Shown here: positions 3,047 through 13,942 of the stretch, piece after piece
How the letters are laid out: each line of letters opens with the position of its first letter
How positions within the stretch are numbered: position 1 is the stretch's first letter
Source of the DNA: Spirochaetia bacterium
GTDB lineage: Bacteria > Spirochaetota > Spirochaetia > CADAEX01
Assembly: GCA_045606105.1 (NCBI GenBank)
Contig: JAZURI010000006.1
Coordinates: 1-24,764, forward strand
DNA length: 24,764 nucleotides
Direction: 5' to 3'
Notes under the pieces: model-generated
Database searches by the model: none
What the model saw: only the letters and a program-made list of their open reading frames with translations
What the model was told of the DNA's origin: nothing
Program-made: the position numbers and the translations under genes

Positions 3047-3841
3047 ATGGGAAAGCCTGCTGTAAAAAAGACATCAAAAAGTAAAAAATCAACTAAACGC
3101 AAAAAAAAGAAATCCGGCCTGGGGTTTTCCTTCTGGTTTGCTCTGCTGTTTTTCATAGTGCTGGTTTTTGCGGTAGGACACAAGCCTATCAGGAATGCGG
3201 TTGCGGAAACAGACTTTTACAAGAAATTCTTTACCGAAAACAGTGCCTCCGAGGCAGTAGTTGAAAAGGTGGAAAAGAAGAAGGGAAAAGCTGAAGAAAA
3301 AAGCGCTCCCGTTGTTAAGGCTGAAAAGGAAACCGTAATTGACCTGAGAAACGAAGCTGAATCGGCAGATACCAGGGTTGTGGAAAAAACAGACAGGACT
3401 GACAGTCAGACAGCAAAAAGCGTCCGTGATTCTGCCCTTTATTATGTCCGTATTACCGATGAAGGCAATATAGCCCTTACCAAGACCGTAAGAAAGGTCT
3501 ATTACTCAGGATCCCCTCTCAATGCATCAATAAATGCCCTTCTGGAAGGTCTCTCCTCCAGTGAGCTTAACAAGGGGCTTATTTCACTTATTCCGGAGAA
3601 GACCAGGCTTCTGGGTATTTCTGTGGAGAGCGGAGTGGCCAGTATCAACTTTTCCGAGGAATTCATGTTCAATACCTTCGGCAAGGAGGGTACCATTGCC
3701 CAGCTTATGCAGATTGTCTATACCGCTGTGGAATTCCCTACTGTAAGAGAGGTGCAGTTCCTTGTAAACAATCATAAGGTAAATTATCTCAGCGAGGGAG
3801 TATATACCGGCGAGCCTATCGGAATAGATTACTTTAATTAA
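3047..3841 (+). CDS. GerMN-domain membrane-anchored protein
   Basis: Basic N-terminus, one TM helix, charged linker, then ALLEG...ISLIPEKTRLLGISVESGVASINFSEEF...QIVYTAVEFPTVREVQFLVN. Confidence 0.88.
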   Translation: MGKPAVKKTSKSKKSTKRKKKKSGLGFSFWFALLFFIVLVFAVGHKPIRNAVAETDFYKKFFTENSASEAVVEKVEKKKGKAEEKSAPVVKAEKETVIDLRNEAESADTRVVEKTDRTDSQTAKSVRDSALYYVRITDEGNIALTKTVRKVYYSGSPLNASINALLEGLSSSELNKGLISLIPEKTRLLGISVESGVASINFSEEFMFNTFGKEGTIAQLMQIVYTAVEFPTVREVQFLVNNHKVNYLSEGVYTGEPIGIDYFN

Positions 3842-3844
3842 TTC

Positions 3845-3873
3845 TTGCCGATTTCATATTTATCGTTTATATT
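3845..3873 (+). promoter_or_regulatory. Putative sigma70 promoter
   Basis: TTGCCG-17-TATATT; SD GAGGTG at 3882-3887. Confidence 0.5.
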
Positions 3874-3891
3874 AAAAAAAAGAGGTGAAAT

Positions 3892-6273
3892 ATGAAAGTT
3901 GTTATTATCGGAGGCGGTGCAGCCGGCGCCAGTTGTGCGGCAAGACTCAGAAGACTTGATGAAAAAGCTCAGATTACAATTATCGAAAAAACATCCGAGG
4001 TTTCCATTGCTAACTGCGGACTTCCTTATTATATATCAGGAGTAATCAACGAACGGGAAAAAATCCTGGTTTCAGATCCTCAGAAATTCAGATCTTGGTT
4101 TAATATCGAGGTTGAACTCAATACAGAAATTGCAGAAATAAACAGGGACGAAAAATTTGTCCTTACAACAGACAACAGAAAATTTGAATATGATTATCTG
4201 GTACTGGCTACCGGTGCCGCTCCTATTGTTCCTCCGTTTGAGGGACTGGACAGAAGCAGAACCTTTGTAGTCAGATCTCTTGACGATGCAGACCGTATCA
4301 AGGGCTTCATAAAAGATAACAATGCAAAAAATGCCGTTATCGTAGGTGGCGGCTTCATAGGTATCGAGGTAGCGGAAAATCTGGTGGAGCTTGGAATAAA
4401 TACCACACTGGTGGAGCTTAACAACCAGATTCTTGCCCAGGTTGACCCGGAAATTGCCCTTATTGCATACAATCATGCGGTGGAAAAGGGGATAAACTTC
4501 ATTCTTTCCGACGGAGTGAAGAACTTCAGGGAAGGAAAGGTGGTACTGAACTCCGGCAATGAGCTGGACTACGATATCTGTATCCTTTCTATCGGGGTAA
4601 AGCCGGAAACTGCCCTTGCCGTAAAGGCTGGACTCGATATCAACAGAGGCATAGTGGTGGATGATCATCTCCGTACCTCTGACAGCAGCATCTATGCAGC
4701 CGGAGATAATATTGAAATCATCGATTTTGTAACAGGCCATACAGGGCTCATTCCTCTTGCCGGCCCTGCCAACAGACAGGGAAGAATAGTTGCCGACAAC
4801 GTTGCAGGGCTTGATTCTGTCTATAAGCAGACCCAGGGAAGCAGTGCGGTAAAGGTTTTTGATCTGACAGTATCGGGAACCGGAAACAATGAGAAGCAGC
4901 TTAAGCAGAAAGGTATTTCTTATCTTAAATCATATATCTATGCCAGATCCCATGCCGGATATTATCCTGATTCCGACATGATTCTTTTCAAGCTTCTTTT
5001 CGACAAGGAGGGAAATATCCTGGGTGCTGCCGCCGTAGGTGAAAGCGGTGTGGAGAAAAGGATTGATGTAATAGCCACCATCATCAGGAATCACGGTACA
5101 ATATACGACATGAGAGATGCGGAGCTTTGCTATGCACCTCCTTATTCATCAGCAAAGGATCCGGTAAACATTCTTGGAATGAATGCCGAAAACATTATCA
5201 TGGGACTCATGAAGCCGGCCTATATGGAGGATCTTGAGGATGCCTTCATCGTGGATGTCCGTCCTGAAATTGCCTTTAAGCTGGGAAGCATAAAGGGTGC
5301 GGTAAACATTCCTATTACAGAAATCAGAAGCAGAATGGGTGAAATCCCGAAAGACAAAAAGGTGGTTCTGACCTGCAGTACCGGTTATACAAGCTACTGT
5401 GCCCAAAGGATTCTTCTCCAGAACGGATTTGATAATGTTTACTCCTTCATGGGAGGCAACGATTTTTATCGGGAGCTTACAAGAAAGCCCCGCAGTCCAA
5501 AGGGAGGTAAGGCCGAAGAAAAGGCCGGTCCCATAGAAGATTCTGATGCCGTAACAATCGATGCCACCGGACTCCAGTGTCCCGGCCCTATCATGAAGGT
5601 AGCAAAAAACCTTGCATCAGCCGAAGACGGAACTGTTTTCCGCGTACTGGTTACAGACAAGGGATTTGCCGCTGATATCGGAGCCTGGTGCAAAAGTACC
5701 GGCAACACATTGCTGAAGCTTGACAGTGAGGGGAAAAAGATAGTTGCCCTGATAAAAAAGGGAACTGCTCCGGAGACAAAAGAGCTTGCTTCATCTGCTC
5801 CGGCAGCCCGTGGACAGACCATAGTGGTTTTTTCCGACGATCTTGATAAGGCCATTGCCGCGTTCATTATTGCAAACGGAGCCAGAGCCGCAGGTAAGGA
5901 TGTAACCATGTTCTTCACCTTCTGGGGACTCAATGTGCTGAAAAAAGGGGATGTATCTGTCAAAAAGGGTTTTGTGGAGACCATGTTTGACATAATGACT
6001 CCGAAAGGGGCCGGAAAGCTGACCCTTTCCAAGCTTAATATGGGCGGTATCGGAAGCAGCATGCTCCGGGGTGTGATGAAGAAGAAAAATATCCTGACCC
6101 TGAGTGAGCTTATCGGACAGGCCCGGGAAAACGGTATCAAATTCATTGCATGTACCATGTCCATGGATGTAATGGGAATCGTACCTGAAGAGCTTATAGA
6201 CGGCGTGGAGTTCGGCGGTGTTGCAAAGTATATCGGAGAGACAGAAAAGTCCGGCTCAAATCTTTTTATATGA
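3892..6273 (+). CDS. FAD/NAD(P)H-dependent CoA-disulfide/persulfide reductase fused to rhodanese, TusA/SirA and DsrE2-like domains
   Basis: GGGAAG FAD motif, SIANCGLPYY active-site Cys, GGGFIG NAD motif, YAPPYS; rhodanese VDVR...CSTG; TusA DATGLQCPGP; DsrE2 FFTFWGL and ACTMSMDVMG. Confidence 0.93.
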   Translation: MKVVIIGGGAAGASCAARLRRLDEKAQITIIEKTSEVSIANCGLPYYISGVINEREKILVSDPQKFRSWFNIEVELNTEIAEINRDEKFVLTTDNRKFEYDYLVLATGAAPIVPPFEGLDRSRTFVVRSLDDADRIKGFIKDNNAKNAVIVGGGFIGIEVAENLVELGINTTLVELNNQILAQVDPEIALIAYNHAVEKGINFILSDGVKNFREGKVVLNSGNELDYDICILSIGVKPETALAVKAGLDINRGIVVDDHLRTSDSSIYAAGDNIEIIDFVTGHTGLIPLAGPANRQGRIVADNVAGLDSVYKQTQGSSAVKVFDLTVSGTGNNEKQLKQKGISYLKSYIYARSHAGYYPDSDMILFKLLFDKEGNILGAAAVGESGVEKRIDVIATIIRNHGTIYDMRDAELCYAPPYSSAKDPVNILGMNAENIIMGLMKPAYMEDLEDAFIVDVRPEIAFKLGSIKGAVNIPITEIRSRMGEIPKDKKVVLTCSTGYTSYCAQRILLQNGFDNVYSFMGGNDFYRELTRKPRSPKGGKAEEKAGPIEDSDAVTIDATGLQCPGPIMKVAKNLASAEDGTVFRVLVTDKGFAADIGAWCKSTGNTLLKLDSEGKKIVALIKKGTAPETKELASSAPAARGQTIVVFSDDLDKAIAAFIIANGARAAGKDVTMFFTFWGLNVLKKGDVSVKKGFVETMFDIMTPKGAGKLTLSKLNMGGIGSSMLRGVMKKKNILTLSELIGQARENGIKFIACTMSMDVMGIVPEELIDGVEFGGVAKYIGETEKSGSNLFI

Positions 6274-8213: not shown

Positions 8214-8868
8214 GATAAAAGTCTTCATAATCGAGGACCATACTTTTACAAGAGAAGGAATAAAGGCGATAGTCAGCAGGGATTCCCGCATCGAGGTGGT
8301 GGGTGAAAGTGACAATGTGGACGACGGCTACAACGAGGTAAGCAGGATAAGACCCGATATGGTGCTTCTTGATATTTCCCTTCACGGCAGTTCCGGTCTG
8401 GTGCTGGGAAAAAAGCTCAAGAATATTCTTCCGGAGCTGAAGATCATAATCATTACCGCCTTTTCAAAGATGGACTATGTGATGGATGCCCTTGAAAGCG
8501 GTCTGGACGGGTATATTCTCAAGGAATCTCCGCCGGACGATATGCCGGATATCATAGTCAGGGTTTTTAACGGCGAAATGTTTATCGACAACAATATCTC
8601 CAACAAGGTAATCAAGAGCCTTATAAGAAAGGACGATCCCGACCAGTCGGAGGAGGACAGCACCGTATACGGAACATTGTCCTTCAGGGAACAGCAGATT
8701 CTCAGGCTTCTGGTGGACGGACTGCCGGTAAAGGAGATAGCAGACCAGCTTTTTATAAGTGTCCGGACCGTGGAGAACCACAAGGCCAACATAATGCAGA
8801 AGCTCAAGTGCCGTAACACTGTGGAGCTTGTAAGATATGCCATCAGTATAGGATTGATAGATGTTTAG
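8203..8868 (+). CDS. NarL/LuxR family response regulator
   Basis: Receiver IIEDH...PDMVLLDISL...GYILK; HTH LSFREQQIL...ISVRTVENHKANIMQKL. Confidence 0.95.
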   Translation: MENRIKVFIIEDHTFTREGIKAIVSRDSRIEVVGESDNVDDGYNEVSRIRPDMVLLDISLHGSSGLVLGKKLKNILPELKIIIITAFSKMDYVMDALESGLDGYILKESPPDDMPDIIVRVFNGEMFIDNNISNKVIKSLIRKDDPDQSEEDSTVYGTLSFREQQILRLLVDGLPVKEIADQLFISVRTVENHKANIMQKLKCRNTVELVRYAISIGLIDV

Positions 8869-9844
8869 AAAAATACCGAAGCTGCTTCTGTTGCTGGTGC
8901 TGATTATGTCAGTCGTTTCCTGCGGCGGCAAGGAGAAAGCCAAGTCGGCAAGCAGGCACTCAAAGGAAAGTCTTCCTATAAAGTCCTCCTATCTCAGAAG
9001 TACCTTCTATACAGCCGGAATAGCATTGGCTACCCTTATCAATTCGGAAACCGACTTTATCGCCATGAACATGTCTTCAGCCATCAGCGAGAACCAGAAG
9101 GTGGAATCCCTGGGGGACGGCAGTGCAAAGCTCTGTTTTCTTTCGGGTCCTGAGGCCTATATGGCATTCAACGGACATCCCGATTACTGGGAGCGTCCCC
9201 AGAACATAAGCGCACTTTTCGGTTTCTGTCCTACTCAGTACAGCATAATCGTAAAGTCTGCCGGAATAAAGAAGCTGGAGGATCTGGCCGGAAAAAGGAT
9301 AGCCATCAACTCCGACAAGACAGTTACGGGAGACCTGTTCCAGTATCTTCTGGAGCTGAACGGAATAAACAGCCGTAATTCAGCGATTTTCAGGGTCCGG
9401 GAGCCTATCGGGGAAAGCATGTTTTTCAGGGGCGATGTGGATGCCATCTGGTACGGCATGGGGCAGGGGCATTCTGTTTTCAAGGATTATCTCAGCTACA
9501 AGACCAACATGATCCCTTTCAGGCTGATTTCCTGCGGACAGGAAAACAGGCTCAGGGAATTTCTTACGGTTTATCCGGTCTTTTATACAGATCCGCTCCG
9601 GGTGGACGACAACATATCATCGGAAAGCTCGCTGACCTCCTTTTCATGTCTTGCATCAACCGATTCCCTGAGCAGCGATACGGCATACCTTGTTACCAGG
9701 ATATGGTTTGAGAACAACGATTTTATCAGGCAGTTTCTGGATTTCTATACCTATGATAGGGCACTTGAGGATGCACTGAAGCTCCCGATACCGATGCACC
9801 AGGGAGCCATGAGATATTTTAAGGAAATAAATCTTATCAAGTAA
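8861..9844 (+). CDS. TAXI family solute-binding lipoprotein (divergent)
   Basis: Lipobox VVSC; SAISEN, YMAFNG, IKKLEDLAGKRIAI, GDVDA and the C-terminal IPMHQGAMRYFKE typical of TAXI receptors. Confidence 0.82.
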   Translation: MFRKIPKLLLLLVLIMSVVSCGGKEKAKSASRHSKESLPIKSSYLRSTFYTAGIALATLINSETDFIAMNMSSAISENQKVESLGDGSAKLCFLSGPEAYMAFNGHPDYWERPQNISALFGFCPTQYSIIVKSAGIKKLEDLAGKRIAINSDKTVTGDLFQYLLELNGINSRNSAIFRVREPIGESMFFRGDVDAIWYGMGQGHSVFKDYLSYKTNMIPFRLISCGQENRLREFLTVYPVFYTDPLRVDDNISSESSLTSFSCLASTDSLSSDTAYLVTRIWFENNDFIRQFLDFYTYDRALEDALKLPIPMHQGAMRYFKEINLIK

Positions 9845-10016
9845 TCTTTACAAAAAGATTGCACTTGCAGATTCCGTCCTTGATAAACTCGTCGCAAGGG
9901 CAGAGTGTGGATTCATCCTTGTTGAGGCGGCATGGACAGTGTCCCTCTTTCTTTTCAATGCCGGTTATGATCATATCCACATATTTTCTGTCCGGATTAA
10001 GTCTGTATCCCTGCAT
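9837..10016 (-). CDS. Minimal ferredoxin:thioredoxin reductase catalytic (beta) subunit-like protein, 59 aa, absent from the ORF track
   Basis: Manual translation MQGYRLNPDRKYVDMIITGIEKKEGHCPCRLNKDESTLCPCDEFIKDGICKCNLFVKIT*; LNPD, CPC-x9-CPC-x8-CKC-xLF; ATG overlaps the thioredoxin stop (TAATG). Confidence 0.87.
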   Translation of the reverse strand: MQGYRLNPDRKYVDMIITGIEKKEGHCPCRLNKDESTLCPCDEFIKDGICKCNLFVKIT

Positions 10017-10327
10017 TATTTCAACTCCTCAACTTTTTTCTTGAGGGTGGCAAAGTCAAAATATCCTTCTGTTCTGGACAATGCCTTCTTGTTCTTGAAA
10101 AAAATAAGGGTCGGAACTGCAGAAATATTGAATTTCAATGCCAGTTCGGGACAAGCGTCTGTATCAACCTTGATGATATCCAGATGCTCTTCCTTGCTTA
10201 ATTTTTCCAATACAGGAGAAAGCTGTGTGCAAGGTCCGCACCAGGTTGCAAAAAAGTCCACGAGTACCAGAGAGTCTGCTCTGTCCATCATTTCTTCAAA
10301 TCTTTCATCAGAAGCGTAAGCAATCAT
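10016..10327 (-). CDS. trxA: Thioredoxin
   Basis: VLVDFFATWCGPC active site, cis-Pro segment AVPTLIFFKN; SD AAGGAG. Confidence 0.93.
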   Translation of the reverse strand: MIAYASDERFEEMMDRADSLVLVDFFATWCGPCTQLSPVLEKLSKEEHLDIIKVDTDACPELALKFNISAVPTLIFFKNKKALSRTEGYFDFATLKKKVEELK

Positions 10328-10395
10328 TTTCTTCTCCTTTATTTAAATATAACAAGTTAAATTTCATTTGTGAAGTGTTAATTCAATTTATTCTA

Positions 10396-10424
10396 TTGAC
10401 AAAGGGTATGACTATCTATAAAAT
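10396..10424 (+). promoter_or_regulatory. sigma70 promoter of the tRNA cluster
   Basis: TTGACA-17-TAAAAT with an AT-rich upstream region, 12 nt before tRNA-Ser. Confidence 0.8.
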
Positions 10425-10436
10425 TACAGTACTAAT

Positions 10437-10521
10437 GGAGAGGTGGCCGAGCGGTTTAAGGCGGCGGTCTTGAAAACCGTTGATGTGCGAGCATCCGTGG
10501 GTTCGAATCCCACCTTCTCCG
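10437..10521 (+). tRNA. tRNA-Ser(TGA)
   Basis: GGAGAGG/CTTCTCC acceptor, anticodon loop CT-TGA-AA, long variable arm, GTTCGAATC; CCA not encoded. Confidence 0.95.
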
Positions 10522-10535
10522 TTTTTTTTTGGTTT

Positions 10536-10622
10536 GGAGAGATGGCCGAGAGGCCGAAGGCGCTTCCCTGCTAAGGAAGTATACGGGTAACTGTATCGGG
10601 GGTTCAAATCCCCCTCTCTCCG
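10536..10622 (+). tRNA. tRNA-Ser(GCT)
   Basis: GGAGAGA/TCTCTCC acceptor, loop CT-GCT-AA, long variable arm, GTTCAAATC; CCA not encoded. Confidence 0.95.
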
Positions 10623-10632
10623 ACTTTCTTTT

Positions 10633-10706
10633 GTGCCCATAGCTCAGCTGGATAGAGTATCAGATTGCGGATCTGGTGGTCGGAGGTTCGAATCCTCTTG
10701 GGCATA
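10633..10706 (+). tRNA. tRNA-Arg(GCG)
   Basis: GTGCCCA/TGGGCAT acceptor, D-arm AGCTCAGCTGGATAGAGT, stem TCAGA, loop TT-GCG-GA, stem TCTGG, GTTCGAATC. Confidence 0.93.
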
Positions 10707-10753
10707 TTTTTTCCCGATGGCATGGTTTTTTGCTTTACATACAAAAATTTTTC

Positions 10754-10783
10754 TTGACAATTCAAAAAAACACATTTTATTTT
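10754..10783 (+). promoter_or_regulatory. Putative sigma70 promoter of the repeat lipoprotein
   Basis: TTGACA-18-TATTTT. Confidence 0.45.
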
Positions 10784-10800
10784 TAAAAAAAAGAGAAATC

Positions 10801-10837
10801 CTCTCCTCTTGAAAATTTTTTCGGGGGGGGAGGAGAG
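10801..10837 (+). promoter_or_regulatory. 5' leader hairpin pairing with the RBS and containing a G8 tract
   Basis: CTCTCCTC (10801-10808) is the exact complement of GAGGAGAG (10830-10837); G8 at 10823-10830; ATG at 10841. Confidence 0.55.
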
Positions 10838-10840
10838 CCA

Positions 10841-11791
10841 ATGAAAAAGAAATCAACAACATTACTGATTGTTCTCTGCTGCATGATGGCACTGTTCTTT
10901 TCATGTGACAGCGGAGGGAGCGGCGGTTCCGAAGCTGAGGCTATAAAACTGCCGGTAGTGGGAAGCGTAATTCCTGATGGCGCATACTTTGCCAGGTGGA
11001 ACGGAACTGCATACGAGGGTGTTCTTTCAGGCGGAGATCAGTTCCCTGCCACATTCCAGGAAAAAGATATATTCCTGTACAGAGACTATGCTTACAGATA
11101 TGGCCTTGATTATGATTATAATATAGTTGCAGACGGCTGGGGTGTAACAGTTGCATATGACGGAGCATATGGAGGTGTGGATGCTGCATCGTTTCCCGGA
11201 TTTGCATTCAAGGATAAATCAACATTTGACAACGCCGGACTTATATGTGAAAGCATAAACGGCAAGAAGATAAAGAGTCTGAATAATTTATTTTATGGTT
11301 GTGTGGCTCTTAAAAACTTTGTCGATGATTTTGCGGTTCCGGCAGGTGTTACAGATTTGTATGATATGTTCGAAGAATGTAGTTCGTTGGAAACCCTTCC
11401 TGCCGATTTCAGGATACCTGCCGGTGTGACAGATGTGGGCTGTATGTTCCATGAATGTAGCTCGTTGGAAACCCTTCCTGCCGGCTTCACCGTACCGGAT
11501 AGTGTTACAGAAATGTATAGAATGTTCTATGGTTGTACCTCTCTGGTCTCCCTTCCTGCCGGCTTCACCGTACCGGATAGTGTTGCAAGAATGTTTGATA
11601 TGTTCAATGGTTGTACCTCTCTTTCCGGAACAATTACCATAAATACCAATCCGACATCTTTTGCCAGATGTTTCGAGAACGCGGGAAAAGATACGACAGA
11701 CGGAATCGTTCTGAAAGGTTCATCAACCAAGCTTGATGCTCTGGCTGATACAAAAGGAGCCGGCGGTAAAGTCACCGTAGCAGCTCCGTAA
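10841..11791 (+). CDS. Surface lipoprotein with 26-aa DUF285/BspA-like leucine-rich repeats
   Basis: MKKK plus hydrophobic stretch plus LFFSC lipobox, Gly/Ser linker; repeats of type VT.M..MF..C.SL..LP..F.VP. Confidence 0.82.
   Translation: MKKKSTTLLIVLCCMMALFFSCDSGGSGGSEAEAIKLPVVGSVIPDGAYFARWNGTAYEGVLSGGDQFPATFQEKDIFLYRDYAYRYGLDYDYNIVADGWGVTVAYDGAYGGVDAASFPGFAFKDKSTFDNAGLICESINGKKIKSLNNLFYGCVALKNFVDDFAVPAGVTDLYDMFEECSSLETLPADFRIPAGVTDVGCMFHECSSLETLPAGFTVPDSVTEMYRMFYGCTSLVSLPAGFTVPDSVARMFDMFNGCTSLSGTITINTNPTSFARCFENAGKDTTDGIVLKGSSTKLDALADTKGAGGKVTVAAP
11336..11622 (+). repeat. Intragenic 78-bp tandem repeat (about 3.7 units; boundaries approximate)
   Basis: Identical 35-mer CCCTTCCTGCCGGCTTCACCGTACCGGATAGTGTT at 11472 and 11550; GAATGTAGyTCGTTGGAAACCCTTCCTGCCG at 11375 and 11453. 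Confidence 0.88.
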
Positions 11792-11795
11792 CTGT

Positions 11796-11824
11796 AAAAA
11801 AGCTCCGGAAATCCGGAGCTTTTT
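11796..11824. terminator. Bidirectional intrinsic terminator
   Basis: AAAAAAGCTCCGGA-aa-TCCGGAGCTTTTT between convergent genes. Confidence 0.9.
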
Positions 11825-11841
11825 GTTTATTATATTTCAGG

Positions 11842-12528
11842 TTATTTACAGATAAGGGTGCCGAGATAAGGCTTGTCTGTAAGGATATTTTCCAGGTTTT
11901 CGATATTTTTTCCGTCTGCAACTATTACATCCAGTCCCAGATCGGCTGCCTTTCCGGCGGCGATAGGATCAAACGGTACATTTTTTCCCGGAACCCATTC
12001 GGTGCCTACGATTTTTCTGAAATCCTCCCACTTGATTTCATCCAGCGGTACTGCATCCGGATTCAGTTTAGGATCGTCTGAGAAAACCTTTGCAATATTT
12101 GAAAGGTTTACTACTGTTTTTCCGCCGAACCGTTCTGCAAGATAAACTGCATCAAAATCGGTTGAGAATCCCGGCTTCCAGCCTGCTCCCACCAATATTC
12201 TTCCTGTAAATTCGATATCTGCGGATGGGTCTGTCACCACAGGATCAAGACAAAGCTCTCCGAAAATGGATTTTACCAGCTGTGCGTTCAGTCTTGTGGC
12301 TGTAATTCCGATCCAGTCCTGTACATCTGCCGGAGCATTGCTTTCGATTTCCCTGAATGCCTTCTGGTAAACACGGGCCGGAGCTCCTCCGCCGATAACC
12401 AGGATAAGTCTTCTTTTCTCATCCTCTGCAAGATATTTTTCCACAAGAGCCTTGAATCTCTTCAGAAATTCTGTGTCCACTCCGTCCGGAGCAACTATTG
12501 ATCCACCTAATGATAATATTTTCAACAT
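11842..12528 (-). CDS. pyrH: UMP kinase, archaeal/spirochaetal type
   Basis: ILSLGGSIV, VIGGG..ARVYQ, DWIGITATRLNA, GWKPGFSTDFDAV, DPK, PFDPIA. Confidence 0.93.
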   Translation of the reverse strand: MLKILSLGGSIVAPDGVDTEFLKRFKALVEKYLAEDEKRRLILVIGGGAPARVYQKAFREIESNAPADVQDWIGITATRLNAQLVKSIFGELCLDPVVTDPSADIEFTGRILVGAGWKPGFSTDFDAVYLAERFGGKTVVNLSNIAKVFSDDPKLNPDAVPLDEIKWEDFRKIVGTEWVPGKNVPFDPIAAGKAADLGLDVIVADGKNIENLENILTDKPYLGTLICK

Positions 12529-12534
12529 GGCTAA

Positions 12535-12563
12535 ACTATAAAACGATTTCCTTTTTATTTCAA
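12535..12563 (-). promoter_or_regulatory. Putative sigma70 promoter, leaderless pyrH
   Basis: TTGAAA-17-TATAGT, 6 nt, then ATG. Confidence 0.68.
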
Positions 12564-13417
12564 TATTTTCTGTGACGAACCTTAACCATCATGTCCAGCT
12601 TTACCGAATATGGGAAGGTATCCTTGATTTCCCTCATGGCTGCCTTCCTGATCTTTCCGATAAGCTCACCCCCTTTTCCTATAAGAATGCGCTTCTGGCT
12701 TTCGGTATTCACGGTCAGAAATGCCCGTACCCACAGCCTTTCCATTCCGTTTTCCTCCTGCATTTCCATATCTGCAATCTCTACCGCTATGCAGTGGGGA
12801 ATTTCATCCTGGGTCCTGTTGATTACCTTTTCCCTGATAATCTCACTGATTCTGAAATCCACCTCCTGATCGGTGTAGTATTCCTCAGGATACATCATCG
12901 GACCCTCAGGAGAGGCCTCGAACAATGCGGCGATAAGCTCCTTTACCCCATCCTCGGTTCTGGCCGATACATTGAATATCTTCTCCGGGGATATTTCAAA
13001 CCGTTCCGCAAACCAGCTCTTCCTTTCCCTGGCTGTCTCTTCATCTGCCATATCACTCTTGTTCAGTGCCACGATAATGTTCTGTCCGCTTTCCTTGATG
13101 ATTTTGGTCAGAGTCTCCTCTTCCTTGCCCGGTTCTCTGGTCAGGTCTGTCACATAGAGTATGAAGTCTGATTCCTCCAGTGCCGAAAACATCACATCCT
13201 GAAGCTCCACGTTGGATTTCTTCTCGCTGACATAATAGCCCGGTGTGTCCAGGAATACCAGCTGTCCCTCATCGGAGGTCATGATTCCGCGGATCTTGTT
13301 CTTGGTGGTCTGGGGGGTTCTGGATACAATGGAAACCTTGTACCCGCACATTGTGTTGATTAAGGTTGACTTGCCTGCAGATGGTCTGCCGGTTACCGAT
13401 ATAAATGCTGATTTCAT
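12560..13417 (-). CDS. era: GTPase Era
   Basis: GRPSAGKSTL, PQTT, DTPG, NKSD, YPEEYYTDQ, EIIREK, KH domain ILIGKGG. Confidence 0.96.
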   Translation of the reverse strand: MKSAFISVTGRPSAGKSTLINTMCGYKVSIVSRTPQTTKNKIRGIMTSDEGQLVFLDTPGYYVSEKKSNVELQDVMFSALEESDFILYVTDLTREPGKEEETLTKIIKESGQNIIVALNKSDMADEETARERKSWFAERFEISPEKIFNVSARTEDGVKELIAALFEASPEGPMMYPEEYYTDQEVDFRISEIIREKVINRTQDEIPHCIAVEIADMEMQEENGMERLWVRAFLTVNTESQKRILIGKGGELIGKIRKAAMREIKDTFPYSVKLDMMVKVRHRKY

Positions 13418-13424
13418 TGATTAC

Positions 13425-13453
13425 AGAGTATTGGGAATCGGCAAAAAAAGCAA
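13425..13453 (-). promoter_or_regulatory. Putative sigma70 promoter, leaderless era
   Basis: TTGCTT-17-TACTCT, 7 nt, then ATG; no SD. Confidence 0.6.
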
Positions 13454-13478
13454 GAGGCCGCCTCTTCGGGCAGCCTCT
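13443..13478 (-). terminator. Intrinsic terminator downstream of hsp20
   Basis: Minus strand AGAGGCTGCC-cgaaga-GGCGGCCTCT then tgcTTTTTTT. Confidence 0.75.
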
Positions 13479-13509
13479 GAGCTAAATATTAAGGAGAGAA
13501 AAACTGTTT

Positions 13510-13917
13510 TTAATTGATCTTGATTGTCTTAGGCATCACCTTTTCCTTTTTAGGTACCTCAAGCCTGAGAAGTCCGTTGGTGAAGGTAGCCTTGATTCCT
13601 TCGGCATTGATATCCTCCGGAAGTGTGAAGCTTCTGGAAAATTTCTCGTGTCTTTCGCTCATGATGTAGTGGGTCTTGTCATCCTTTTCCTCAACCTTCT
13701 TCTCTGCATTGAATGTAAGATGATTCTTGTCAATCTTTACCTCAAGCTCTTCCTGTGTGAACCCCGGAAATTCTGTCTCGAAAATATACTCCGAAGCAGT
13801 TTCTTTAATATCTGTGAGCGGAACTCTGATTCTGCCTGTTGCAGTCTTCGCAATTTCCGGTGCAAAAAATTCGTCAAAAAATCTGTTAATTGGTCTTAAT
13901 GATACTAATTCTGTCAT
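13510..13917 (-). CDS. Small heat shock protein Hsp20/alpha-crystallin family (start revised to ATG 13917)
   Basis: PLTDIKET...EFPGF...FSRSFTLPEDI...ATFTNGLLRLEVPK; SD GGAGG at 13927-13931. Confidence 0.94.
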   Translation of the reverse strand: MTELVSLRPINRFFDEFFAPEIAKTATGRIRVPLTDIKETASEYIFETEFPGFTQEELEVKIDKNHLTFNAEKKVEEKDDKTHYIMSERHEKFSRSFTLPEDINAEGIKATFTNGLLRLEVPKKEKVMPKTIKIN

Positions 13918-13942
13918 AATTTTTATCCTCCGATAATAGTTA

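Follow-up and report, generated by a model that had tools for sequence, protein, structure and literature searches.

The 24,764-nucleotide stretch of DNA analysed here (the window; contig JAZURI010000006.1 of a Spirochaetia bacterium, assembly GCA_045606105.1) carries two overlapping genes on its minus strand. One encodes a canonical WCGPC thioredoxin (trx), and the other a 59-residue protein, called mini-FTR below, that resembles the catalytic subunit (FTRc) of ferredoxin:thioredoxin reductase (FTR). The translation of mini-FTR, MQGYRLNPDRKYVDMIITGIEKKEGHCPCRLNKDESTLCPCDEFIKDGICKCNLFVKIT, begins MQGYRLNPD, ends NLFVKIT and holds six cysteines in three CxC pairs, C27PC29-x9-C39PC41-x8-C50KC52. 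The stop codon of trx (TAA, 10018-10016) and the start codon of mini-FTR (ATG, 10016-10014) share one base within the sequence TAATG. An earlier note on this DNA had described both the 59-residue minus-strand open reading frame (ORF) with its CPC-x9-CPC-x8-CKC pattern and its start inside the trx stop codon, and both descriptions are confirmed. The pair stands isolated in the window. Upstream lie three tRNA genes (Ser, Ser, Arg; 10436-10707, +), and a convergent NMT1_3-family gene (8861-9844) overlaps the 3' end of mini-FTR with its own 3' end by 8 nucleotides (9837-9844). A scan of 9500-10800, which includes the region between the convergent genes, found no terminator-like hairpin. GGAGG-like sites are present 5' of the mini-FTR gene in most of 12 loci inspected.

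Table 1. Features of the trx-mini-FTR locus (window coordinates)
Feature	Position	Strand	Evidence
mini-FTR coding sequence, 59 aa plus stop TGA (9839-9837)	9837..10016	-	ORF, FeThRed_B, structural alignment, dN/dS
Thioredoxin gene (trx), 103 aa, WCGPC	10016..10327	-	Pfam Thioredoxin 90.3 bits; TIGR01068 101 bits (cut-off 96.8)
Shine-Dalgarno sequence GAGGAG for mini-FTR, within the trx 3' end, 8 nt 5' of the ATG	10025..10030	-	sequence reading
Shine-Dalgarno sequence AGGAG for trx	10334..10338	-	sequence reading
Promoter-like TTCACA-17-TATATT with upstream TG, 5' of trx; consensus match only	10346..10374	-	promoter scan

The mini-FTR ORF is a real and conserved gene. In a protein search, all 124 candidates of 32-104 aa matched at E <= 0.01, and the 120 that are listed are 58-94 aa long and 62-83% identical to mini-FTR. 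The earlier note had named loss of the cysteine triplets in relatives as grounds for abandoning its reading; the CxC-x9-CxC-x8-CxC pattern is kept in 119 of these 120 relatives, with P0116 short of one Cys. The residue in the middle of the third pair is Lys in 112 of them, Arg in five and Ala in two. A pattern scan with one genome per species found a mini-FTR relative encoded in at least 225 species genomes. The gene is also under strong purifying selection. The syntenic locus L007, from a Spirochaetia metagenome-assembled genome (MAG), is collinear with window positions 8350-13928 at 77-86% nucleotide identity, and comparison of the two mini-FTR orthologs gave dN 0.094 and dS 1.39 (dN/dS ~0.07); the neighbouring trx is 90% identical to its syntenic gene in L007. 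Across the family, the medians of 3240 pairs of 81 sequences were pN 0.18 and pS 0.64.

Because public protein records (from NCBI, Logan and ENA) already include the exact 59-residue sequence, nameless and on 42 contigs, the longest of which has the window's length of 24,764 bases, mini-FTR is not "unannotated" as the earlier note had it, and several relatives carry the JGI or NCBI name "ferredoxin-thioredoxin reductase catalytic subunit". Metatranscriptome contigs from three runs of one study cover both genes (9429-10325; 9501-10224 together with 10195-10331; 9655-10224). These RNA-library contigs end at 10325-10331, and a DNA contig continues to 10609. Together with the promoter-like site, the RNA contig ends are a weak hint of transcription; such contigs prove neither transcription nor a single transcript. 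Position 10046, within trx, is T in all three metatranscriptome runs and G in the window and the best DNA run, most likely strain variation.

Judged by its sequence, mini-FTR is homologous to the FTR catalytic subunit, as the earlier note had proposed. The Pfam profile FeThRed_B (PF02943), a check suggested by that note, matches it at 22.3 bits against a gathering threshold of 22 (E 1.4e-4, profile positions 17-87 of 106), which is a marginal pass. Searched as a single sequence against solved structures, mini-FTR matches 4tpu (E 3.4e-4) and 7pwe (E 5.7e-3). A profile of 34 family members matches the same two at E 1.5e-7 and 4.2e-6, and six FTRc sequences at E 3.7e-3 to 7.3e-3. In the alignments, the six cysteines fall in register with those of 1dj7, 2pvg, 2pvd, 4tpu and 7pwe. 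Lys51 stands under the His of CHC in Synechocystis FTRc (the His86 position of FTRc), in agreement with the claim of Lys at the FTR His position, and under the Tyr of CYC in the ferredoxin:disulfide reductases (FDR; 4tpu and 7pwe).

Structure prediction points in the same direction. The AlphaFold model of mini-FTR has a pLDDT of 95.1 and a pTM of 0.76. Foldseek ranks 1-13 are occupied by FDR and FTRc chains only (TMq 0.68-0.74, E 1.7e-3 to 4.8e-2), with 4tpu at rank 1, and every row after rank 13 has E > 1.9. In VIA-align, 58-59 residues superpose on FTRc residues ~24-94 with a root-mean-square deviation (rmsd) of 1.6-2.1 Å and Z of 6.4-7.0. Since this Z range is middling, the fold argument rests on the sequence match as well. 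By model and sequence together, mini-FTR shares the FTRc/FDR fold.

Searches for companion domains and further copies were largely empty. The earlier note had seen neither a variable subunit nor a rubredoxin domain, and this is borne out: FTRv, the variable subunit (PF02941), has no match at E <= 0.1 in the window's genome, which is 99.03% complete (the control, Synechococcus, did give a match), and no rubredoxin or other domain is fused within the 59-residue ORF. A search for longer forms gave one candidate, an unrelated-looking protein of 137 aa that carries PF00266 and comes from a contig of 817 bases. The six-frame FeThRed_B scan of the whole genome does not list mini-FTR, and its only match, C2:88135-88224 (13.2 bits, one TGA), was considered as a second copy or selenoprotein form and rejected: it is off-frame, and reading TGA as U yields no FTR-like sequence. 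The gene around it reads like one of the coaBC type. The family profile finds a single copy in this genome (G000).

Mini-FTR was also compared with the known enzymes. It shares with plant and Synechocystis FTRc the fold over all 59 residues (rmsd 1.6-1.8 Å, Z 6.8-7.0), six cysteines in three register-matched CxC pairs, the CPCR motif, the x8 spacer before the third pair followed by L-F/Y, and with FTR the genetic pairing with a thioredoxin. The reference figures of the earlier note were correct, with solved FTRc chains of 107-117 aa and CPC-x16-CPC-x8-CHC in the alignment; against these, mini-FTR is about half the size and matches only FTRc residues ~24-94, its first spacer is x9 and not x16, and it has Lys in place of the His of CHC. 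In addition, its genome lacks an FTRv gene and its host is a non-photosynthetic gut anaerobe. The best sequence matches (32-37% identity) are 4tpu, the FDR of Methanosarcina acetivorans, and 7pwe, in which Desulfotalea psychrophila fuses Grx to FDR; both likewise come from anaerobes, have no FTRv and have a non-His residue at the active-site position. Unlike mini-FTR, these two enzymes bear an extra rubredoxin or glutaredoxin domain (chains of 173 and 196 aa) and have Tyr (CYC) where mini-FTR has Lys, and their spacers are longer (x14 and x12 in 4tpu). Wei et al. in 2015 and Prakash et al. in 2018 reportedly described the reduction of atypical thioredoxins and NrdH-like redoxins by FDRs. Of the defining traits of plant-type FTRc, mini-FTR lacks three: the His, the larger size with its x16 spacer, and FTRv. 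Of those of archaeal FDR it lacks two, Tyr and a rubredoxin domain. The most fitting classification is as a minimal variant of the FTR/FDR class with a single domain. TrxB and its ferredoxin-dependent flavoenzyme relatives (FFTR) resemble it in their proposed role, thioredoxin reduction, and are distributed in a complementary manner in two orders, but they have an unrelated fold, use flavin and CxxC chemistry, and are ~310 aa long.

Also close to mini-FTR are short FTRc-like proteins with a single domain (52-125 aa), a family that has neither a name nor a curated profile. When 1.84 billion representatives were searched with a profile, 1046 clusters matched at E <= 1e-3, of which 69 reached E <= 1e-10, and motif statistics were taken from the best 150. 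Three CxC pairs are present in 110 of these 150 representatives, with (9,8) spacing in 71 of the 110. In the middle of the third pair the 110 have His (49), Cys (18), Lys (12), Arg (9), Ile (7) or other residues (15). This spread of spacings and middle residues makes the short forms a large and varied group, to which mini-FTR corresponds in its features (50-125 aa, CxC-x9-CxC-x8-CxC, no further domain). The CKC proteins form one clade among the short forms, many of which retain CHC and in which the residue is variable. The replacement of CHC by CKC that the earlier note singled out is genuine as regards the Lys, but it is one of many variants in this family, with His, Cys, Arg and Ile all common.

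Several variants within the short forms deserve mention in their own right. The third pair reads Cys-Cys-Cys in 18 of the 110 representatives (P0124, P0131, P0137 and others), which puts a seventh Cys beside the predicted active site. Sister species of the window's genus (G001, G002, G008) carry another short subfamily, CPC-x9-CMC-x15-CHC, of 65-66 aa (L097:1495-1692, +; L098:1498-1698, -; L099). Unlike the trx-linked mini-FTR, this CMC/CHC gene follows a glutathione-peroxidase-like gene directly in one species, and in another lies behind a gene for a 432-aa Fe-S (hydrogenase-like) protein. The nearly invariant His26, which precedes the first CPC of mini-FTR, was considered as a substitute for the missing active-site His and set aside, as 121 representatives showed no covariation: in those whose third motif has His, the first Cys is preceded by His in 18 and by Tyr in 30, and in those with Lys there, by His in six and by Tyr in six. 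A full-text literature search found no paper on gut-bacterial short single-domain FTRc-like proteins or on the CKC variant; work on FTRc diversification and FDR may describe such forms, and so an earlier description may exist.

Gene neighbourhoods were analysed in the best 80 loci from the 225-genome pattern scan. A thioredoxin gene lies within 700 nucleotides on the same strand in 31 of them, upstream in 29 and downstream in two. Coupling to thioredoxin, as claimed earlier from the window, stands for the window with its 1-nucleotide overlap, and an adjoining thioredoxin is found in just these 31 of the best loci. In 28 of the 80 the mini-FTR gene precedes a membrane-anchored Thioredoxin_2 protein with CPHC, in 32 it follows a radical SAM gene (~296 aa, PF04055) at a gap of 9-177 nucleotides, and in seven it faces Spm-like membrane genes. 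On a poorly resolved tree of the 59-residue protein, the radical SAM context is nearly a single clade (3 changes) and thioredoxin linkage is scattered (8 changes), so the latter looks general and the former lineage-specific. The radical SAM context (for example in L011, with the radical SAM gene at 2092-2988 and the gene for the CPHC protein at 3348-3986) occurs in gut MAGs labelled Bacilli and Mycoplasmatota, and the best matches of this uncharacterised gene, all weak, are NrdG2 and glycyl-radical activases. Some thioredoxin-linked loci (L017:2357-3578, L072:3210-5070) hold an oxidative-stress cluster composed of an ArsR-type regulator, trx, mini-FTR, desulfoferrodoxin and a flavodiiron protein.

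The strongest functional evidence for mini-FTR is its distribution relative to TrxB. Ten carriers were chosen, five with thioredoxin context and five with radical SAM context; a TrxB-like gene is present in two of them, at 316.7 and 336.7 bits, and the best match in the other eight scores no more than 96.1 bits. The anti-correlation was quantified in two Firmicutes-labelled orders with 101 genomes each. In the order of G022, there are 52 mini-FTR carriers, counted by family-profile match, and 35 genomes with a TrxB-like gene (E <= 1e-30), and both occur together in seven (45 of the 52 carriers without a TrxB-like gene; 28 non-carriers with and 21 without one; odds ratio 0.12, Fisher p 6.8e-6). 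TrxB exceeds the curated cut-off in seven genomes of this order, just one of which overlaps with mini-FTR, via a weak match of 29.8 bits. In the order of G025, six of seven carriers have no TrxB-like gene and the seventh has one, and 92 of 94 non-carriers have one and two do not (Fisher p 1.5e-7); seven strong matches were counted there, and an eighth (G146, 21.9 bits over 18 residues) was excluded as spurious.

Five TrxB-less carriers each encode a canonical thioredoxin, which in G182 lies directly upstream of the mini-FTR gene, and four of the five have PFOR above the cut-off. Weak TrxB-like matches of ~415 aa in G022 and G025 were inspected as possible hidden thioredoxin reductases and rejected, since no TrxR-type CxxC active-site motif was visible by eye in the two translations; they look like flavoproteins of the GltD/NfnB type whose N terminus is rich in Cys. 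Many gut Firmicutes with small genomes appear to have mini-FTR and no other known type of thioredoxin reductase. The anti-correlation, which comes from two orders other than that of the window, lends indirect support to a function of mini-FTR in passing electrons from ferredoxin to thioredoxin.

In the window's own genome the situation is different. This genome (1.46 Mb, 11 contigs, 46% GC) encodes PFOR (1895.6 bits), two small 2x[4Fe-4S] ferredoxins and NrdD, and also a canonical TrxB (346.8-346.9 bits, above the cut-off of 343.45; motifs CASC, GGGDSA and HRKDRFRA) and a second thioredoxin (WCAPC) that is 40% identical to the window's. The earlier proposal of thioredoxin reduction from ferredoxin "rather than NADPH", for which a trxB check had been suggested, does not hold for this organism; as a whole, the note's reading was largely right, but overstated on this point and on "unannotated". 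A TrxB-like gene is present in 19 of the 20 genomes of the order, which comprises one family and four genera. The CKC gene is confined within the order to three genomes of the window's genus (G000, G006, G007), with none among 11 genomes of the three other genera, and G006 has it at the same site with the same neighbours. The closest relatives outside the spirochaetes, at no more than 78% identity, are in Bacillota-labelled MAGs. The GC content of the cassette (0.39-0.43 against 0.46 for the genome) is too weak an argument for transfer. Because TrxB is retained and only three species of the genus have the cassette, it is an extra system here, and the trx-mini-FTR cassette is probably a laterally acquired, accessory ferredoxin-linked route beside NADPH-TrxB.

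Taken together, these observations make it probable, though well short of certain, that mini-FTR is a minimal single-domain [4Fe-4S] disulfide reductase of the FTRc/FDR class, co-transcribed and translationally coupled with its substrate, the WCGPC thioredoxin. What we infer for mini-FTR itself, namely cluster binding, ferredoxin as donor, reduction of thioredoxin and a role for Lys51, follows the mechanism established for the Synechocystis and spinach FTR, which serves as the model for each step. C27, C39, C41 and C50 would hold a [4Fe-4S] cluster beside a C29-C52 disulfide. Reduced ferredoxin, which PFOR could supply here, would give one electron. The C29-C52 disulfide would then open, with C52 bonding to the cluster and C29 attacking the thioredoxin disulfide, forming a C29-Trx heterodisulfide. 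A second electron from ferredoxin would free the reduced thioredoxin. In this scheme Lys51 may replace the active-site His of FTR or Tyr of FDR as charge or proton partner.

A complex prediction of mini-FTR with its neighbouring thioredoxin and a 4Fe-4S cluster gave weak support. It scored 0.54 against 0.25 for the best control, with 100% contact agreement between runs and partner pLDDT of at least 88. Of 80 solved complexes, 58 pass the same mark, as do two of 110 mismatched pairs; at scores of 0.60 or lower it is passed by just seven of the 80 solved complexes and by both of the passing mismatches. As FTR-Trx complexes have already been solved, the pass may reflect memory.

Several points weigh against identifying mini-FTR as a thioredoxin reductase of this kind. 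The FeThRed_B score sits right at its threshold, and the sole NCBIfam match, FtrB_double_U, reaches 15.6 bits against a cut-off of 160. The Z of the structural superposition falls, by the tool's own note, in the range of common arrangements. The FTR active-site His is missing, and two of the 120 listed relatives even have Ala at its position. No biochemical data were found for any member of the mini-FTR family, and RNA support consists of contigs from a single study, which do not prove transcription. In the G022 order, 21 of 101 genomes have neither mini-FTR nor a TrxB-like gene, and the co-occurrence tables of both orders count related, non-independent genomes without completeness figures. 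With a canonical TrxB in its own genome, mini-FTR is dispensable there for thioredoxin reduction. No thioredoxin lies within 3 kb in 49 of the best 80 loci, and in 32 of the 80 mini-FTR instead follows a radical SAM gene.

In an alternative that we consider unlikely, mini-FTR is an FDR-type Fe-S disulfide reductase whose main substrate is not the adjacent thioredoxin but another redoxin or disulfide. This could be a redoxin of the NrdH or Grx kind that supplies class III ribonucleotide reductase, a pathway of thioredoxin-like proteins outside the cytoplasm or a radical SAM partner. The 49 loci without an adjacent thioredoxin, the 32 located 9-177 nucleotides downstream of a radical SAM gene and the 28 upstream of a membrane-anchored Thioredoxin_2 CPHC protein would all suit it, as would NrdD in the own genome; FDRs, moreover, act on atypical thioredoxins and NrdH-like redoxins (PMC6262447). 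On the other hand, the coupling in the window is to a canonical WCGPC thioredoxin with a 1-nucleotide overlap, the radical SAM context with its 3 changes is essentially one clade and may be a single lineage-specific arrangement, and the TrxB-less carriers with that context still encode one canonical thioredoxin elsewhere. If thioredoxin is the substrate, the donor could in turn be flavodoxin, rubredoxin or an oxidoreductase acting directly, and not ferredoxin. Compared with FTRc, mini-FTR lacks roughly 23 residues at the N terminus and 20 at the C terminus and has shorter loops, so that its ferredoxin docking surface may differ, and the M. acetivorans FDR requires its rubredoxin domain as a relay. 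We nevertheless judge a donor of this kind improbable, given PFOR and small ferredoxins in the own genome, PFOR in four of the five TrxB-less carriers, and no linked rubredoxin or flavodoxin gene within the window.

Loss of catalysis altogether is another reading with a slim chance. Here mini-FTR would be a Cys-rich protein that partners thioredoxin by binding metal at a Zn or Fe site, or by sensing redox state through Fe-S, its reductase chemistry having disappeared with the His, a view that accommodates its very small size, the Lys in place of His and the high variability of this position in short forms. Yet all six cysteines, including the non-ligand pair C29/C52, are kept in all but one of the 120 listed relatives, and anti-correlation with TrxB is expected of a functional replacement, not of a sensor. 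A chance ORF or a decaying remnant without expression is barely credible: short length, the 8-nucleotide 3' overlap with the convergent gene and the lack of a terminator-like site in the scan are outweighed by a dN/dS of ~0.07, relatives in at least 225 species genomes, a Shine-Dalgarno sequence, the exact protein on 42 contigs and RNA-library contigs that span the ORF. A ferredoxin-linked reductase of the neighbouring thioredoxin is the explanation that we prefer.

Two other features of the window were noted in passing. A 793-aa fusion (3892-6273, +), 3.5 kb from the trx cassette, joins a pyridine nucleotide-disulfide oxidoreductase (CoA-disulfide-reductase-like) to rhodanese, TusA and DsrE-like domains, in that order, an architecture of sulfur trafficking or persulfide reduction. 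Positions 10716-11795 are an insertion absent from the syntenic locus L007; right after the tRNA cluster, it carries a lipoprotein-like gene with DUF285, a Mycoplasma-type repeat (10841-11791, +).

The preferred explanation can be extended to a broader proposal, which we hold tentatively and at somewhat less than even confidence. In this proposal, a 59-residue protein built around one [4Fe-4S] cluster would be a complete and self-sufficient thioredoxin reductase, the smallest known, and numerous gut Firmicutes with reduced genomes and without a TrxB-type flavoenzyme would have no other way to reduce thioredoxin. Cellular thiol redox in these bacteria would be tied directly to the ferredoxin pool and not to NADPH. 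The enzyme would use Lys and do without the His that is held important in FTR, and trx and mini-FTR would travel together from phylum to phylum as a module, in this case into a gut spirochaete. If mini-FTR works as proposed, it would define the minimal scaffold for Fe-S-mediated disulfide reduction, and the natural variants with Lys, Arg, Cys or Ile in place of His would be available for probing the FTR mechanism. It would also account for how many uncultured gut bacteria with small genomes, which possess thioredoxin and no TrxB-type reductase, fill what looks like a gap in their thiol redox metabolism, and would mean that genes of fewer than 60 codons can bear a core housekeeping function that size-filtered annotation hides.

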